Of a DNA stretch of 64,000 bases, positions 3,139-61,658 are shown piece by piece. The notes under the pieces are model-generated. The model did not search any database and was not told the origin of the DNA. It saw nothing but the letters and a program-made list of their open reading frames with translations. Source of the stretch: Octopus sinensis (Eukaryota); assembly GCF_006345805.1 (NCBI RefSeq), contig NC_043009.1, positions 40,734,001 to 40,798,000 of the forward strand, read 5' to 3'. Made by a program: the position numbers and the translations under genes. Positions within the stretch are counted from its first letter, which is position 1. Every line of letters begins with the position of its first letter.

Positions 3139-3170
<32 letters not shown>

Positions 3171-3175
3171 ATCTA

Positions 3176-3505
3176 TATATATAATATAATTCGAGACAAA
3201 ACCACTATTTTAAAACCAAACAAGGAAAGACTTAATCAATACATAAAATTTTAATATAAATATTTATTTAATTTATTATTTTATTTATTTATTTATTTTT
3301 TATTTTTTATTTATTTATTTATTTTATTATTTATTTTTATTTAATTTATATTAAAATTTTATGTATTGATTAAGTCTTTCCTTGTTTGGTTTTAAAATAG
3401 TGGTTTTGTCTCGAATTATATTATATAATATTTTACTATAAAATTGGATTTAACCCTAAATCTGATTTTTCCCTGTAATTTTGGATTCATTCCCTAATAT
3501 TTTTA
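3176..3505. mobile_element. Fold-back Penelope-like tail element between TA arrays
   Basis: Inverted arms ~3176-3261 and ~3344-3427. The termini (GAGACAAAACCACTAT; TTTTCCCTGTAA..TTTGGA..CCCTAATATT) recur at 59990-60253. Confidence 0.6.
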
Positions 3506-5330: not shown

Positions 5331-5717
5331 TCGCCTCTCTCTAGCCCCTCTCTCTAGACTTTTCGATACCATATGACAAAGGCAAGAAATTCTGTCTTCT
5401 CTGCAATTCTGAGCTATTTTTCATTATTTTTTCTAAAAATACTCTAGTAAACACGGTTATAGAGCGAGCATACATATGTAAGCATTGGCAAAAACACATT
5501 TAGTGCATATAAGTAGTCTCTATCATTATATATAATTTAAACTTTAATTTCCTTTATATTTAACATTCACTATTAATATCCCTACTCTTTCTGTTAGCTA
5601 CTTATGACGTTATATCATATAACGTTTTTTTAAACAATATTAATAGCGTTCTGTCTATCGCTATACAAATCCATCATTTTTTGCTAAAATGTCGTATTGA
5701 CGAGTTTCGTTTTTTTC

Positions 5718-5801: not shown

Positions 5802-6139
5802 AAAATATTTGTTTACACCTGCGTTAACTCCATTTTTATTCATATTATTCAAATATTCACGTAAACACGAAGTTTCTACCTTTATAAACAAGGAGTTACA
5901 ACATCTTTACTTGTGAGATTTTTGCTGCCCTGGTAACTATTTATTTATTTATCCGTGTTAATTGTTAACAAGGTAAAAATACACTCATCTATTTATATAT
6001 ATATATATATATACAAATTATAAAAATAAAAAATAATACAGTACAGTATTGTTTCTACTTCGCGGATTTTCACCCGTCGCGGGGTGTTTTGTAACGTAGC
6101 ACCCACAATAGTCGAGGGATTACTGTACCGCAGCGGGTT

Positions 6140-6490
6140 CCTAAGTTCGATATGCACGCAGTCTTCCACACTTATCAGTTCGCTTCCTCCAGTTTTTCTT
6201 TTCATGTATAGGCGATCTGTGTCCTCACGCGGATGATGGACCCTATGCATTTTTAAGGGCTTTCTTGTCTTCCTGTACAACACCTTAAGCTCATCCGCTG
6301 TCCACTTCAGAATTCTAGCGCCAAACCGAACCACTGCGACTGCGCGAGAGATTATTGCCGAAATTATGTTTCTGGCGTTCAAACTTTGAATTCAATATTT
6401 TTCTCATTTGCAAACGATAAACTCTTTGTCTTTTCTTTCATATGCTTAATTCCATTTCTTCAAGTATCCTCATGTATTTGTATCCGGATT
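6140..6490 (-). mobile_element. R4/Dong-clade LINE remnant, RT thumb region (same element as 4850-5330)
   Basis: NARNIISAIISRAVAVVRFGARILKWTADELKVLYRKTRK..HHPREDTDRLYMKRKTGGSELISVEDC matches the R4/Dong W..EL..DRKTRK..HHP..D.DRLY..R..GGRGL motif. Confidence 0.85.
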
Positions 6491-7084: not shown

Positions 7085-7325
7085 TAGGCATGTATTTTAA
7101 TTACTAAAACCTGCAGAAAATATAATAACTATTTTAAGCTTTTTAAAACATATACGTATATGAGTAAATCTGCCAACAAAGTTATATAAGCATTAGGTCA
7201 ATCTGCATTATTTTGTCCACTAACTGCGTCAGGGTTCTCTGCATATATTTATGTATGTATGCATGTATGTATGTATGTATGTATTCATCTGTCTATCTAT
7301 TTATCTATTCTTCTCTCTCTCTCTG

Positions 7326-7365
<40 letters not shown>

Positions 7366-7421
7366 TATATTTATAGATTATGTATAGAGAGAGAAGAGAG
7401 AGGAGAGAGAGAGAGAGAGAA

Positions 7422-7894
7422 AAGTAAAGAGTGAAAAAACCACAGAAGGCTTAAATGTTAAAAAATATATATATTTGCGTCAATATGCCTGAAGAATATT
7501 AGAAAATTTTAAAAAAATTTGTTTCTCTTATAATGACATAATTTAAAAGAAAGACCGGTTTCGCGTGTAGCTTTTCAAATTTCTTGTGACGTTATGTTTA
7601 TGTTGAATAGAGTTATCGTTATGTTTATGTTCAGGAGAGTTCTAAATAAGGGAAGGTAGTCTTCCCTTATTTAGAACTCTCCTGAACATAAACATAACGA
7701 TAACTCTATTCAACATAAACATAACGTCACAAGAAATTTGAAAAGCTACACGCGAAACCGGTCTTTCTTTTAAATTATGTCATTATAAGAGAAACAAATT
7801 TTTTTTAAATTTTCTAATATTCTTCAGACATATTGACGCAAATATATATATTTTTTAACATTTAAGCCTTCTGTAGTTTTTTCACTCTTTACTT
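7422..7894. repeat. Near-perfect 473-bp palindrome (arms ~234 bp, 5-nt spacer) carrying a hammerhead 3' half
   Basis: Arms 7422-7655 and 7661-7894 with spacer GTAGT. GAAA-CCGG-TC at 7754-7763, mirrored at ~7553-7562. Confidence 0.9.
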
Positions 7895-8018
7895 GTTTCT
7901 ATATATTCACCACGTGCTTTCACAAACCAACTTTATATATATATATATACATGCATACATGATGTATATACATATATGCATATACATACATACATACATA
8001 CATACATACATACATACA

Positions 8019-8053
<35 letters not shown>

Positions 8054-27547: not shown

Positions 27548-28075
27548 GGCAGCAAGCTGGCAGAATCGTTAGCACGCCGGGCAAAATGCTTAGCGGCATT
27601 TCGTCCATCCTTACGTTCTGAGTTCAGATTCCACCGCGGTCGACTTTGCTTTTCATTCTTTCGGGCTCGATAAAATAAGTACTAGTCAAGCATTCGAATC
27701 GATGTAATCGACGGATCTTTACCGTCTGATTTAGAAAATTTACCGGCAGATTTAGAAAATAATTTTTTGTAATTAAATACTTTCAAACTTCGTATACTGG
27801 TAGAATGTGTCATATAAAACATCTTTTACTCTTAGAGTTTTTGAGAAAACTTTATATTTACGATAACTTTAACACGAAATAACTTAGTAAATATAAAGTT
27901 TTCTCAAAAACTCTAAGAGTAAAAGATGTTTTATATGACACCAGTATACGAAGTTTGAAAGTATTTAATTACAAAAAATTATTTTCTAAATCTGCCGGTC
28001 AGAAGGTAAAGATCCTAATCGACTAACTCCCTCCCACAAATTTTCAGGCCTTGTGCCTATAATAGAAAAGGTTAT
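27548..28075 (+). mobile_element. SINE family B interrupted by a MITE; further degraded B copies follow to ~28400
   Basis: Head GGCAGCAAGCTGGCAGAATCG at 27548. The sequence resumes after 28023. Confidence 0.85.
27713..28015. mobile_element. Fold-back MITE with GG..CC ends and 8-bp TSD (Merlin-like)
   Basis: TIR GGATCTTTACC/GGTAAAGATCC, arms ~140 bp. TSD TAATCGAC at 27705-12 and 28016-23. Confidence 0.85.
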
Positions 28076-31653: not shown

Positions 31654-31832
31654 TTCAGATGACTATAACACAAGGGGCTAAACACAGAGGGACAAATACA
31701 AACATAAGTGGAGACGAAAAAAGACAAATGAATGTGAAAATGAAAAAAATGAATAATGAAATAGAATGAAGCCACTTGACCCCACACCCGAGTGACTTCA
31801 TTTACACTTTTTTTACTTTCTTTTTACAAACT

Positions 31833-32043
31833 ATTGCAGCGTGGAAGGTGTTTATAAGCCATTTAAGAAACACACAAAACCCGTTAGATTCACTTCAACA
31901 TTTAAATTTAATTTGTCAAAATATTTTCGTCGCTTTGAGACCGCGACGAAAATATTTTGACAAATTAAATTTAAATGTTGAAGTGAATCTAACGGTTTTT
32001 GTGTGTTTCTTAAATGGCTTATAAACATCTTCCCCGCTGCAAT
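31833..32043. repeat. Palindrome (arms ~100 bp, 9-nt loop) centred on a hammerhead-like stem II
   Basis: GTCGC-TTTGAGACC-GCGAC followed by GAAA-ATAT-TT-TGACAAA. Arms 31833-31933 and 31943-32043. Confidence 0.85.
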
Positions 32044-32821
32044 TGTTTTCGTTCCAGCACACGATCTCAGATCCGGTCACTTGCTATGCAAGTACATCTC
32101 CGTAATTTTTACAAACTTATAATTAAGAAAGTTTAACTTAGGCGGCAACTTACTTTCGTCTGCTGTCACGCCTATGTCCAATGTTTCTGTCCCACAGTTT
32201 TCCATTAAACCGAAACATTTTTTGGAGTGGGGGTTGGGGACTTTTGGGCACCTGTCTATTTTTGTTATTGTTTGTGTCAGGTTTCTTGTCGGCACTCTTT
32301 TTACCTGGAATACCACAATCTGGTCCTCCATAACAAGTAGGATGGCAGCTACCAGCCAGACAACATATACCCCAGGACTAACCTTTGACTAACCTTTCGC
32401 ACAAAAAAAATTCACGATCAACTCGGTCACGGATGATACTAACAACGAGAAAAAAAATCAATGTTAATTCATTGATGCATTTGGGCAAGTCTATGTCTGT
32501 TTTATGAGACAATTTCCAAAAAAAAGGTTTTAATAAAATTCAAAACTCTGCAAAAATTCTTCATGGTTCCAAACGTTTCTTACTTTTTACTCAATGAGAG
32601 AGAGAGGGAGGGAAGGAGGGAGAGAGAGAGAGAGAGATAGGAATGTAATGTTTATCGCGACCTACGTTTAGGTGGCGATAAGAACAGACGGTACTGCTAT
32701 TTTTACGCCAAGAGGACGCTTCTTCCTATACACACACACACACAATATATATATATACATATATATATATACAAATATATATATACATACATATATGTAT
32801 TTATATATATATATATGTATT

Positions 32822-34002: not shown

Positions 34003-34239
34003 ATTAACAATTGAGGATAAAATCTTTAAAAGAAATTATCAGTAGTCAGCGTGAAAACCTCGTAAGAGAAAAATCCGTAAATTCTTCCTCTTTGAAAATA
34101 TTCATTTATATTATATGAGGGTACTACTATTCGTAGATACCAACACGCTAAGAGGGACCAATGCGGTCAAAACTACTAAAAATAAACAAAATTTTACCGA
34201 ATGCAAAACTTCAAACACATCATTTTAAAAAAGAATTCA

Positions 34240-34303
34240 GTTACATATCACATGTGATTTCGCATTTAATGCAGAATACGCATTTCATGTTCGTCAGTGC
34301 AAC
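34240..34303 (-). ncRNA. Type I hammerhead ribozyme (mirror copy of 34943-35006)
   Basis: The reverse complement gives GTTGCA-CTGACGA-...-GAAA-TCACATGTGA-TA-TGTAAC. Confidence 0.8.
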
Positions 34304-34942
34304 AAACTCAAGAAATATAAGAAAAAACATAACATTACAAACTCGATAGCCAACCGTAGAATTCGTCGTAGCTTGTACGAATGTTTATCTTTACATATCT
34401 ATGAAAATGGCGGGCTTTTTCGCAATGCATTTCGGTAACAAATTGCCTAGTCGGAATAAAAATTCAGTATTGAACTATTCCGGTGAAAAAATAAATTAAC
34501 AATTGAGGATAAAATCTTTAAAAGAAATAGTATCAGTAGTCAGCGTGAAAAACCTGTAGAGAAAAAATCCGTAAATTCTTCCTCTTTGAAAATATTCATT
34601 TATATTATATTGAGGGTACTACTATTCGTAGATACCAACACGCTAAGAGGGACCAATGCGGTCAAAACTACTAAAAATAGGATTTTTTTCTTACGAGGTT
34701 TTTCACGCTGACTACTGATAATTCTTTTAAAGATTTTATCCTCAATTGTTAATTTATTTTTCACCGGAATAGTTCAATACTGAATTTTATTCCGACTAGG
34801 CAATTTGTCACCGAAATGCATTGCGAAAAAGCCCGCCATTTTCATAGATATGTAAGGATAAACATTCGTACAAGCTACGACGAATTCTACGGTTGGCTAT
34901 CGAGTTTGTAATGTTATGTTTTTTCTTATATTTCTTGAGTTT

Positions 34943-35006
34943 GTTGCACTGACGAACATGAAATGCATATTCTGCATTAAATGCGAAATCACATGTGATA
35001 TGTAAC
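34943..35006 (+). ncRNA. Type I hammerhead ribozyme
   Basis: Stem I GTTGCA/TGTAAC (one G-U). CTGACGA 34949-55. Stem II (A)CAT/ATG(C). GAAA 34985-88. Palindromic ATCACATGTGAT. Predicted cleavage after A35000. Confidence 0.82.
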
Positions 35007-35137
35007 TGAATTCTTTTTTAAAATAATGATGTGTTTTGAAGTTTTGCATTCGGTAAAATTTTGTTTATTTTTAGTAGTTTTGACCGCATTGGTCCCTCTT
35101 AGCGTGTTGGTATCTACGAATAGTAGTACCCTCAATA

Positions 35138-35223
<86 letters not shown>

Positions 35224-38443: not shown

Positions 38444-38540
38444 CAAACAAGAAAAATAGAACTCAAGATATGAGTATATGTATATTTTTATGTACATTAT
38501 TTACAATTGACGGATATTTGTCCTCATCTTGTTTGCTGTT

Positions 38541-38586
38541 AACACAACTTTTCGGTTGATATACCCTCCAGCCTTCATCAGGTGCC
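38541..38586 (-). ncRNA. Minimal type I hammerhead ribozyme
   Basis: Reverse complement: GGCAC-CTGATGA-AGGCTG-gagggtatat-CAACC-GAAA-AG-TT-GTGTT. Confidence 0.7.
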
Positions 38587-38689
38587 TTGGGGAAACTTTC
38601 GGTTCTCTTTCCTGGGTTCTCTTTCCTAAGGTATTTTTCGGTGTTGTTGTTGTTATCATTATTATTATTATTATTATTATGATGATTCA

Positions 38690-38761
38690 GGTCACTGCTT
38701 GGAATCGAACTCGGAATTTTGAGGTTAGTAGCCCGCACTCTTAACCACTACGCCATATGCC
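38690..38761 (-). promoter_or_regulatory. tRNA-derived Pol III head (A and B boxes) upstream of a hammerhead
   Basis: Reverse complement: GGCATATGGCGTAGTGGTTAAGAGTGCGGGCTACTAACCTCAAAATTCCGAGTTCGATTCCAAGCAGTGACC. The acceptor stem is not intact, so this is not a functional tRNA. Confidence 0.8.
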
Positions 38762-38868
38762 GTGGGTATGATAACAACAACAACAACAACAACAACAGCA
38801 ACAACAACAACAACAACAACATTGGAAAATAGCTTAGAAATGAGAACCCAGGTTCGAAATTTCCCCTA

Positions 38869-38906
38869 GACACCTGATGAAGGCTGGAGGGTATATCAGC
38901 CGAAAC
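38869..38906 (+). ncRNA. Hammerhead with intact core and stem II but deleted stem III and cleavage site
   Basis: GACAC-CTGATGA(38874-80)-A-GGCTG..CAGCC-GAAAC, then an ~11-nt deletion relative to the mirror arm. Confidence 0.65.
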
Positions 38907-39788
38907 AACAAAAAAGGATGAGGACAAATATCCTTCAATATTGTAAATAATGTACATAATTACTCATCTCTTAAATATAGAACTGTATGTATATTTTTAT
39001 TGATGTTTAACAGAAGTAACAGAGTAATTCAAGGTCCCAAGAGTTTTGCATGTTAGCAGAAGTGTGCGTGCGTGCGCGTGTGTGTGTATAGATGTATGTA
39101 AGAACGTATATATGTGCTTATGTCTGTAAGTATGCATACATGAATGCTCTTGTATATATCTATGTATTTGTGTAGCCGTTGGCATTTAGTAATGATTCGT
39201 TGTAGTGTAGGCGTTGTATACATCTGAGTTTCATGTATATAATATATTTACAACAGCAGACATCAGTGAATTGCAGTACGCACAAGGAAGGCTATGGTAT
39301 TTAGCTGGCGTGTTACAATTGATGGGGGTGTGTAAAAGGAAATGTTAAAATAATCTGACTTCATAGATTTACGTTACCGTTAATAATCTGTTTAGATATG
39401 AATGTCGATGATGTGACGGCTGACTACAATGGTGGAAAATTTGAATAGTAAGAGGATTGAGGTTCCTGGAAATAATTTCGTTCTGATGTAAGACCGATGC
39501 TATTCGAAAAGCTTGGCACTCCGCGTAAAGTTCACTTTAGTAAATCATCAGAAACGGTTCTATCATTACTTATTAAATTAAATTCAAAGACATCTAACAC
39601 TCATTTATGCCTGAACAGAGACAAATGCATACAAATGCATACAAATGCATACAAATACACAATCATATATATGTATGATTATATACCGATGTACGCACAC
39701 ATACACGCACACGCACACATATATATCAATTTATATATATATACATATATATATATATATGTATGTATATATATATATATATATGTAC

Positions 39789-39884: not shown

Positions 39885-40318
39885 AGTAATCATAAAGGGT
39901 AAAATTAATTAATCAATTTATAATTAATAATCTTACCAAGTAGTTTTGGTATGTTAAAAGAACCATTATCGGTAAACTTATACAAAAATTTTATAATTAT
40001 AAACATAATTATAATTAGGGTTTAGCAAAATATCTTGATTACTAGTGCTCCCAAATTTATAATTGAAATACTATACTGATGATGGAAATAAGATATGGTT
40101 AATTTTACATATCTTTAATCCTGAAACGCGTATATAGTTAATCAAAGCCGGGTGGATTCGGTATTTTTTCTTTTTGTCTGTGTGAGTTGAGAGTATTGCT
40201 ATCTGGGAGATATCTTATGGTAGTAGAATAGTATTTAACTGCTACTTCTAAATTTCGGTATGGAGTGAAGCAATTTTGCTAAACCCTAATCATAATTATG
40301 TTTATAATTATAAAATTT

Positions 40319-55943: not shown

Positions 55944-56436
55944 TGTGTGTGTGTGTGTGTTTGCGTGTGTGTGTAGTCGAAGATTTTTCGGCTTTGATAA
56001 AATAGTATATTTTTTTCTTCTTTTAGTTGCTTCGGTCATTAGACTGCGGCCATGTTGGGGCACCGCCTTGAAGAGTTCAGGTCAGTCGAAAAACTTGACC
56101 CCAGTTCTTCTCTTTATTTTAAAGCCTAGTACTTATTCTGTTGGTCTCTTTTTGCCGAACCGCTGGGATACGGAGACGTAAACAAACCAGTTCTCTACTA
56201 CCGGGTATGAGGCAGCGGTAGAGAACTATCACTCCGTCGGTTACGACAACGAGGTTTCCAGTTGATCAGATCAACGGAACAGCCTACTGGTGAAAGTAAC
56301 GTTCAAGTGGCTGGGCACTCTACAGACGTAGTTCTCGCAGTGGTTCAGCGTGACACAAAATATGACAAAGTTGAACCTTAGAAATACAGGTTCATCTTTG
56401 AACTTCTCTGCATTAAGATCTGAAATATAAGATCTT

Positions 56437-56561
56437 CCCTGCTCTGATGACGGAGGCTCGTCGTACCCACTGTTAATTGCATCCGTACGGCTGCATATTG
56501 TGATGAACTAAATCTACCAACATTATTATGGATTACCGAGCCCCCAGAAACACCTGTTGGG
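56437..56561 (+). ncRNA. Long-stem-II hammerhead variant
   Basis: CTGATGA 56444-50. GGAGGCTCG/CGAGCCCCC closes a 96-nt stem II region. GAAA 56547-50. CACCTG-TT-GGG. Confidence 0.62.
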
Positions 56562-56703
56562 TTTACAACACCTTTCTTCCACTACTTTAATTTTCTCTGT
56601 TGTTTGCACTTTATGTAAGTTGGACCTATTAATGTAAATATTTATATGTTTATACGTTAAAATTCATTATCTGAAAGTTTCTACCTTTTGCTTTCTCTCG
56701 TTT

Positions 56704-56758
<55 letters not shown>

Positions 56759-57944: not shown

Positions 57945-58200
57945 AACTTATAAACAGTTTTTCTATGCTAATATTCTCAGAACAGACTTTAAATCGTCAA
58001 TTTCCACATTTCACTATCCTGTTGTATAATGAAATGTGGAAATTGACGATTTAAAGTCTGTTATCAGCATATTGGCATAGAAAAACTTTTTCTTTTGCCC
58101 TTGTTTATAAGTTGTTTATACTTTTAAACTTCTTTATAGGTATTTTAATATGCCGCCACTTTTGATGAAATTTTTTCTGAAAATTTTTTTATCCTATATA
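57945..58200. mobile_element. Fold-back element ending in the conserved 3' hairpin motif
   Basis: Arms ~57945-58013 and ~58030-58113. Motif at 58150-58196. Confidence 0.65.
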
Positions 58201-59985: not shown

Positions 59986-60253
59986 ATATAAATTAGAGAT
60001 AAAACCACTATTATGCAACTCAAGCAGTGATAGACAGAAACCAAAACATAAATAACAAACAATATATATTTTATAAAACATATAACTAGATCTCAAAAAG
60101 TATAAAAATGAATGATCAATATATAAGTAAAAAAACTGCGTACGTTTCATGGCTACAATTAAATTCGAATGACAATTAAATTTAAATTGTGAAATTTGAT
60201 TTAATACTAAATTCAATTTTTCCCTGTAAGTTTGGAGTTATACTCCCTAATAT

Positions 60254-60255
<2 letters not shown>
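59985..60255. mobile_element. Divergently joined Penelope-like tails with a hammerhead 3' half, between TA arrays
   Basis: The minus strand has GAAA-CGTACG-CA at 60148-60137. Both termini match 3176-3505. Confidence 0.55.
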
Positions 60256-60287
<32 letters not shown>

Positions 60288-60654
60288 TATCAAATATTCT
60301 CTGTATACATTACACTTTGTAATGCTCAAGAGGTTTAAGCTTGAGCAAGTATAGAAGCAAATGTGAGGATATGCATGTTAGGCAGGGGTCAGTATGCAAA
60401 TATATTAAATACATGAAAATAGAAAAAAATGTACGTATGTTTGCATACAAAAAAGGTATGACTTACCCTGAATAGAAATGATATGAAGAATTAAATAGGT
60501 TGAAGAAAAGTATTACAAATCCAACAGTTACTTCTGGTGGTCTAAAATAATATTTGTAGATTGCTAGGCTGACTTTGTCTTGGTTCAAGATTACATTTAG
60601 GTATGGATACTAATAGTTTTGGTATTAAATAGATTTAATAAAATACGTGAAAGA

Positions 60655-61030
60655 TCAGAAATACCTGTCTTCGCAAAACAAAATTACATCTGAGAATCTA
60701 TTAAATAATGAGGAGTTGTGAAGGCGAAGAATGGTTAGCGATTCTCTTAAACATAATTTACACATATCAATGTTGGCATTGTTTGGACGAGTTTCACTTT
60801 ACTATTGACCAAGATAAGGCCTATGGAATATTTTAGTATTTAAGGTGGTTGATAATTTAAAATTTGGATTGGAGAAAGAATTCATGTGTGCACAATAGCG
60901 GCGCTTGAAATCAACTGTACCACCGATATATACCCTTGCTACATGGCACTTGTAGATTACATTCTTACGTAAACAAAAGGCTCCAAGAGGGCATAGTTGA
61001 GAAACCCGACAATTGCAAGTGTACCTACCT
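60655..61030 (-). pseudogene. GIY-YIG endonuclease domain remnant of a Penelope-like retroelement
   Basis: CNCRVSQLCPLGAFCLRKNVIYKCHVARVYIGGTVDFKRRYCAHMNSF..STTL, then after frameshifts WSIV..MCKLCLRESLTILRLHNSSLFNRFSDVILFC. Confidence 0.85.
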
Positions 61031-61339
61031 GCTCTGTGGTTAGAGTTTACTGCTAGGGAAGTTGAACTCCGTTGGTCCATTATTAGTGAGGAAGGACCAA
61101 AAGTACAATCTGTATCAGTATTGGATTGGGAGGTAGTATTGCAGCTAGTATATATTGTCGAGTGGGTAGAATTGTGGGAAGATGGCTTGAGTTTGGTATT
61201 ACTAAGATGAGTGGGGTTACTAAGGGTTGTATTATCGCTATTCGGTGAGTTAATTTGAGGTGCAGTGTGAGGGTTTGGGTATTATGAGGACTGGTGTTGA
61301 AGTTTGCGTCTTCTTACTATCAACACTTCACATGTAAGT

Positions 61340-61435
61340 TCCCTTCACTGAAGACGGAGGCTCGTTTCATCTGACGATGGAATCAATCTACAAACATTAT
61401 TTTGGACCATCGTGCTCCCAGAAACAGCTGTTGGA
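61340..61435 (+). ncRNA. Long-stem-II hammerhead variant in the pLTR
   Basis: CTGAAGA 61348-54. 66-nt stem II region with ACGATGG/CCATCGT. GAAA 61421-24. Palindrome AACAGCTGTT. GGA. Confidence 0.65.
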
Positions 61436-61611
61436 TTTGTAATACTTTTCTTCAACCCCTTAATCTTTGATATCAATCAATTTTATTCTGTATAAATAAG
61501 ACCTTTTTGTATGTAAACATTTGTATATATACATTTTTTGCATTTCATTTATTTAATATACTTTGTATATTGACCTGCCTAACTAGCTTATCATTACACT
61601 TGCTATATATA

Positions 61612-61658
<47 letters not shown>

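Follow-up and report, generated by a model that had tools for sequence, protein, structure and literature searches.

The locus analysed here is very probably a dead, 5'-truncated PLE of the Hydra type that lies in a (TA)n microsatellite, accompanied by a second, inverted copy of a hammerhead-bearing 3' end that is likely its own. It is part of a repeat-rich eukaryotic sequence of 64,000 nucleotides (the window), and it represents a new family of the already described Hydra clade of PLEs, not a Naiad. The element reads on the minus strand and its parts, together with a third copy of its terminal repeat, are arranged as follows:

60254-60289, no strand: (TA)n target microsatellite, flank at the 3' end of the element
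60290-60356, minus: 3'-terminal extension, absent from the inverted arm, with an 8-bp hairpin (60323-60330/60340-60347)
60357-60563, minus: direct 3' copy (A) of the terminal repeat, which keeps only a damaged hammerhead 3' half (about 60534-60520)
60564-60654, minus: 3' UTR from the ORF stop to the terminal repeat, common to relatives of the family (records spanning 60556-60774)
60655-61020, minus: decayed Hydra-type C-terminal GIY-YIG endonuclease (EN), with the CxCx5C linker, the R, H, E and N residues and CxxC
60657-60655, minus: ORF stop; FNR of the EN at 60705-60697
60762-60751, minus: CKLC of the EN, followed by LRE at 60750-60742
60906-60895, minus: KRRY of the EN; H within 60894-60886
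60960-60952, minus: VIY of the EN; VYIG at 60933-60922
61017-60973, minus: Cys motif C-x-C-x5-C-x5-C of the EN ORF, in a single frame
61021-61311, minus: S/T/N/P-rich linker of the ORF, with 88 codons open ahead of the Cys motif; the alignment with relatives extends to 61311
61309-61603, plus: inverted copy (B) of the terminal repeat, which adjoins the 5' truncation point
61345-61435, plus: predicted type I hammerhead of arm B, with a short stem I, a 46-nt loop II and a palindromic stem III
61604-61650, no strand: (TA)n target microsatellite, flanking the inverted arm on its outer side
56398-56706, plus: solo, more diverged terminal-repeat copy (C), which starts where a SINE-like repeat ends and itself ends in (TA)n

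The terminal repeat and the origin of the locus

The inverted repeat aligns 60563 to 60357 (minus strand) with 61384-61604 (plus strand) at 170/226 identical positions (75%, E 5e-35), and arms A and B show 30 mismatches in 201 aligned bases, a divergence of 14.9%. The original prediction placed an inverted repeat that retains the hammerhead at 61385-61583; the repeat is indeed there, but the first half of the arm B hammerhead (61348) falls outside that range and also beyond the alignable repeat, as this half is missing from the direct 3' copy. Upstream of 60563/61384, A and B are wholly different, so a deletion in the direct arm must be assumed, and the hammerhead 5' half was likely lost from copy A by deletion at a short microhomology. 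In four listed contigs of relatives the alignment covers the UTR and ends at 60556-60557, directly behind a 7-8-nt word that is also found inside loop II. This end point fits a microhomology deletion in the direct arm; a join by template switching could also explain it.

The flanks agree with the predicted preference for TA: (TA)n directly adjoins each of the three repeat ends in the window (both ends of the locus and copy C), against 1.9% of window positions that lie within 6 nt of such a run. (TA)n is also found at a loose end of the relatives in run X1, and relatives run about 19 nt beyond the 3'-terminal extension of the locus before they reach it (loose ends at 60294).

Contigs matching at 80% identity or more were collected from four of the 24 listed public runs, which carry four organism labels, with 877-1,089 matching contigs per run. 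The junction between the ORF and the inverted arm is spanned with 0-9 differences in all four runs and the junction at 60563 is spanned in run X2, so the structure of the locus is real and shared. Other copies of the family differ by about 15-19% in the listed pieces, a range that the 80% cut-off truncates, and the divergence of the arms is close to this value, as expected if both arms stem from one old insertion. With the calibration used in PMC13282606 (JC 0.09 equals about 25 My), the insertion would be roughly 20 My old if the host is an octopus. The likeness of the SINEs in the window makes an octopus the probable host. No full-length DNA copy was found among metagenome contigs (searched with P0004, the best full-length protein match, and with the repeat pattern) or among viral contigs (searched with an alignment), so the ORF and an intact hammerhead repeat were not seen together at a second locus. 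The repeat is likely the family's own pLTR, an association seen at this one locus only.

A short series of steps could have produced this arrangement. An intact RT-EN element elsewhere would have nicked the (TA)n run, and reverse transcription would have been primed from the 3' region of the element's RNA, yielding a short copy whose synthesis ended within the linker (about 61311). Next to it, the terminal repeat would have been copied in inverted orientation, from 61309 onwards. Both arms would then have decayed neutrally to about 15% difference, and the direct arm would have lost the first half of the hammerhead by microhomology deletion.

A different history, which we consider unlikely, is that the hammerhead repeat (about 300-370 nt) is an independent non-autonomous unit, similar to a retrozyme or a solo pLTR, whose 5' start is fixed and which was joined to a fragment of the Hydra ORF by template switching at a short microhomology and moved in trans. 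What speaks for it is that (i), the summed contig depth in run X1, a weak measure, reaches 22,587 at the repeat core vs at most 6,650 over the ORF; (ii), the repeat starts within a few bases at three places (at 61309, near 56398-56403 and at a contig joint found in both X1 and X2, among the best-supported 15 of 175 joints), about 39-46 nt before the hammerhead core; and (iii), the UTRs of the four listed relatives cease to align at 60556-60557. However, 5' truncation already predicts an excess of 3' ends, and a direct copy after the stop with an inverted copy at the truncation point, both on (TA)n, is the standard product of a single insertion. Moreover, the divergence of the arms is that of the family and stem III matches the hammerheads of the Hydra clade. 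As regards a retrozyme, the window contains no head-to-tail tandem, the three copies of the repeat being dispersed or inverted.

Short words of the repeat have no exact match in the published consensi, apart from one chance match each for two of them, and four octopus and squid Naiad 3' ends, as well as Hydra-1_Obim, look unlike it by eye. Several third-position changes between B and C in one frame, also seen by eye, raised a protein-coding reading of the repeat, but the same frame has stops further upstream, which make this reading improbable. At 60293-60340, a match to U6 (E 5.6) was taken as chance. The extreme 3' end of the family (60290-60310; loose ends at 60294) resembles by eye, over about 20 nt, the sequence after the hammerhead of the coral element Hydra-2_Amil; this is possibly a conserved Hydra 3' motif, or chance.

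A predicted hammerhead with a long loop II

In arm B the hammerhead core consists of CTGAAGA (61348-61354), GAA (61421-61423), an ACAG/CTGT stem III and the cleavage base T at 61432, followed by GGA. After CTGAAGA come one C (a C.A mismatch), a 9-bp stem II of which seven positions are paired, a loop with an inner hairpin, then A and GAA. Copy C has its core at 56444, its cleavage base at 56558 and 8/9 pairs in stem II, and its core halves are 96 nt apart vs 66 nt in arm B (61348-61432). The two copies share the core, the 9-bp stem II, the A-U 15.1-16.1 pair, the palindromic stem III and a non-G cleavage base; only 2/3 pairs of stem I form in either, and stem II holds no compensatory change between them (the 5' arms are identical). 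A 17-nt word inside loop II is kept in all three copies (61384-61400, 60563-60547 and 56510-56527) and is a predicted hairpin loop in B and C, making it a candidate site for protein binding or for a tertiary contact. Judged from its sequence, the hammerhead of the family would be of type I and, given the palindromic stem III and the short stem I, of the dimer type; stem II would contain a long structured insertion. The role of this hammerhead, if any, is likely to cut tandem precursor RNAs as a dimer.

In these features it resembles the PLE ribozymes of the dimer type reported by Cervera and de la Pena 2014, whose cleavage in vitro is weak and which are also of type I, with a long stem II, a short stem I, an extra base after the core and a palindromic stem III (dimeric folding); it differs from them in the large, partly conserved and hairpin-containing insertion predicted in loop II. 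The ACAG..CTGT stem III occurs in Hydra-1_aMil, Penelope-1_NV, Penelope-1_SK and Penelope-2_SK (PMC8557442, File S2). The published Hydra hammerheads listed in PMC8557442 have a loop II of about 3-10 nt, whereas here the halves are 66-96 nt apart and about 225-245 nt follow the cleavage site. No long-loop-II Hydra hammerhead is described in the papers searched.

It is improbable, in our judgement, that the two hammerhead boxes are unrelated conserved words and form no ribozyme. This explanation draws on the 66-96 nt between the boxes, on the incomplete stem I of both window copies and on a predicted fold other than the active one: at its lowest energy, arm B pairs the GAAA core instead of leaving it free. 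In addition, a strict descriptor (second box within about 70 nt, three perfect stem I pairs) missed the hammerhead of arm B, and Rfam found no hammerhead at the locus, in a search whose control region was uninformative as it held no descriptor-passing hammerhead. Against it, the core, stem II, the A-U pair, the palindromic stem III and the non-G cleavage base co-occur in both copies, and the family majority restores both weak pairs: an A at 61413 restores the stem II pair (depth 11,404/11,971 in X1, similar in the other three runs) and the listed loose ends of the family have a C before the core (61347), which restores stem I. The locus copy therefore carries two stem-weakening changes. Furthermore, a relaxed descriptor, written after the arm B site had been seen and tuned on it, returned five sites in the window (34297-, 34949+, 40076+, 56444+ and 61348+), where about 0.2 are expected by chance (0.19 per shuffled window over 100 shuffles, maximum 2).

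Three other readings of the motif were rejected. The view that the locus retains a mere half core was overturned by the GAA-ACAG/CTGT site found by eye and by the relaxed descriptor. A minus-strand hammerhead at 61369-61350 has no CTGANGA in place, and the relatives do not keep the minus-strand GAAAC; a hammerhead in the terminal hairpin (60360-60300) likewise has no CTGANGA in place.

The endonuclease remnant and its clade

The Cys pattern, VIY..YIG and CKLCLRE that had been noticed on the minus strand are confirmed and all fall in one frame (61017-60742). This frame is open from 61281 to 60805 and is interrupted by two in-frame stops (60804-60799), after which CKLC-LRE, FNR and CED resume. 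The best Hydra-like reading across the gap is ..SWSIVK (60829-60794) in the neighbouring frame, at the position of the conserved W of the relatives, so this EN copy has compensating frameshifts. The CxH of the EN is changed to CED at the locus; in the relatives, loose ends (60683) read CKH in frame in three of the four runs listed. There is a single Cys between VIY and YIG, and CCHH is absent. The element is truncated at about 61311, inside the linker, and the window contains no RT. The locus is therefore unable to mobilise anything, and the proposal that it represents the mobilising enzyme does not hold for this copy.

The likeness to an EN is not due to chance: an HMMER scan of the 82-aa EN fragment against 1.84 billion proteins returned 277 matches at E<=0.001, and a profile of the relatives' EN domains scanned over the window scored iE 2.8e-21 at the locus vs 8e-5 at the next-best site. 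Pfam gave no match for the window peptides and a sub-threshold GIY-YIG on the relatives, a PDB search gave no useful match, and word-indexed protein searches with the 82-aa fragment and with the fragment P0003 found nothing among longer proteins, which is weak evidence.

The Hydra clade was defined by Craig et al. 2021 (PMC8557442) by a C-terminal EN, a CxCX5C linker, the absence of CCHH, CxxC before the E, CxH after the N, and RWK and DKT in the RT; its members carry canonical hammerheads, insert at (TA)n and include Hydra-1_Obim of Octopus bimaculoides. Domain order and motifs of the present element match this definition: it has the C-terminal GIY-YIG, the CxCX5C linker, no CCHH and CxxC/CxH around E and N. 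It likewise has a predicted hammerhead, with a long loop II, in the 3' region, a (TA)n target and an inverted 5'-truncated copy as in Penelope-13_HM. The earlier reading of an EN-bearing PLE with an inverted terminal copy, (TA)n flanks and a hammerhead motif is borne out; the predicted link between the ribozyme and an EN-bearing PLE that inserts at (TA)n was already published for the Hydra clade (PMC8557442). The family differs by eye from Hydra-1_Obim in its EN, 3' end and hammerhead. No description of it was found in the papers searched, and the main text of a paper on repeats of O. vulgaris (PMC13282606) mentions neither Hydra, Naiad nor ribozyme.

The protein relatives have the same organisation. 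Among the 150 listed of the 277 first-round matches, the Cys linker is present in 132, YRDD lies upstream of the linker in nine and no RT lies downstream, the sole YxDD after the linker being a YKDD inside a 171-aa EN fragment. By a pattern of our own, two Cys inside the GIY..YIG core occur in 0/150 of these listed relatives and in 0/120 of the best relatives in the P0004 set. CxxC..E is found in 57/70 and N..CxH in 52/70 of the listed relatives that are long enough. P0004, an unnamed Logan protein of 806 aa (40% over 136 columns, E 1e-24), has RWR, DKT, YRDD and a C-terminal EN. In an EN tree of 40 rows it forms a pair with the window (support 99/86), the branch of the window being long (1.58); this tree holds search matches only, with no Naiad, Neptune or Poseidon rows and no outgroup clades. 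The full-length set comprises P0004 and the 119 best listed relatives, and in these best 120 of 960 we counted RW[KR] in 112, DKT in 108, DKA in one, an EN after YRDD/RT in 113, CxxC..E in 113 and N..CxH in 111. One relative comes from Argonauta hians. Here the EN is preceded by a linker of at least 88 aa, vs a median of 32 in 108 relatives, five of which (one probably mis-parsed) exceed 60; a long S/T/N/P-rich linker is also present in P0003. P0020, P0190 and P0209 are full-length Hydra-type proteins with low-complexity insertions of 250-300 aa between the RT thumb and the EN linker.

The element had been assigned to the Naiad/Chlamys PLEs, which would carry an N-terminal EN. Naiads do share with it a GIY-YIG EN, presence in octopus, a (TA)n bias, inverted ends and a CxC-x5-C motif, and in some of them the hammerhead boxes are split ('half core'), but this assignment is highly improbable: the EN here runs into a stop and the 3' end and not into an RT, the Cys motif directly precedes the C-terminal GIY-YIG, the locus has neither CCHH nor a CX2-5CxxC finger, the long relatives have the RT upstream and DKT instead of DKA, and by eye the ENs and 3' ends of octopus Naiads are unlike those found here. 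Naiads, as described in PMC8557442, have the opposite domain order, the CX2-5CxxC finger, CCHH and DKA, and no canonical hammerhead. In octopus Naiad proteins the CxC-x5-C motif lies after the EN and before the RT, which probably explains the earlier label. The Poseidon PLE PAc of Anolis (PMC11167929) belongs to another clade and resembles the Hydra-type element in its RT-EN architecture, AT-rich cleavage and pLTR hammerhead; for PAc, the one PLE to have been reconstituted, insertion in vitro did not depend on cleavage by the hammerhead.

Other repeats of the window

Several other regions of the window deserve mention. A 1-kb fold-back element at 34108-35143, with 91% identical arms and adjoining (TA)n, has a complete type I hammerhead in each arm (34949+ and 34297-, with 6-bp stems I and III) and looks like a younger PLE end of another family. 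A complete minimal hammerhead with a palindromic ACGCGT stem III and a 6-bp stem I lies at 40070-40138 (plus). An inverted pair at 38488-38959 contains CTGATGA..GAAA boxes (38874+ and 38581-) that failed both descriptors, and is likely another PLE end. Further palindromic or fold-back repeats with 84-93% arm identity are found at 7245-8053, 27742-27999, 31828-32048 and 57952-58091. Beside the element, a non-repetitive island (60000-60250) between two (TA)n runs is possibly another PLE end; 59939-60074 matches 3139-3272. At 5366-5500 (plus) the Hydra EN profile matches weakly with its C-terminal part (iE 8e-5), and a 132-codon frame at 5996-6391 (minus) seems to resemble the end of a LINE reverse transcriptase.

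Implications

The analysis establishes a second Hydra-clade family, abundant and old, in a probable octopus genome and corrects its Naiad label, which in itself adds little beyond annotation, the hammerhead link to (TA)n-targeting, EN-bearing PLEs being already in print. The only unexplained points are the long-loop hammerhead and the shared 5' start of the repeat. We tentatively entertain, as a possible but rather doubtful extension, that this Hydra family possesses an active long-arm type I hammerhead of a form missed by standard descriptors and Rfam, in which loop II holds a structured insertion of 46-76 nt that itself has a conserved core. On this view the hammerhead end would have a 5' start fixed at about 40 nt upstream of the hammerhead core and would have multiplied by itself, as a short non-autonomous element dependent on the RT-endonuclease of Hydra; a complete ribozyme may then be present in some PLEs to which only a 'half core' has been assigned. 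Should hammerheads with a long loop II be functional, surveys of ribozymes in PLEs count too few of them. The loop II insertion would then offer a natural handle on what the hammerheads of PLEs do.
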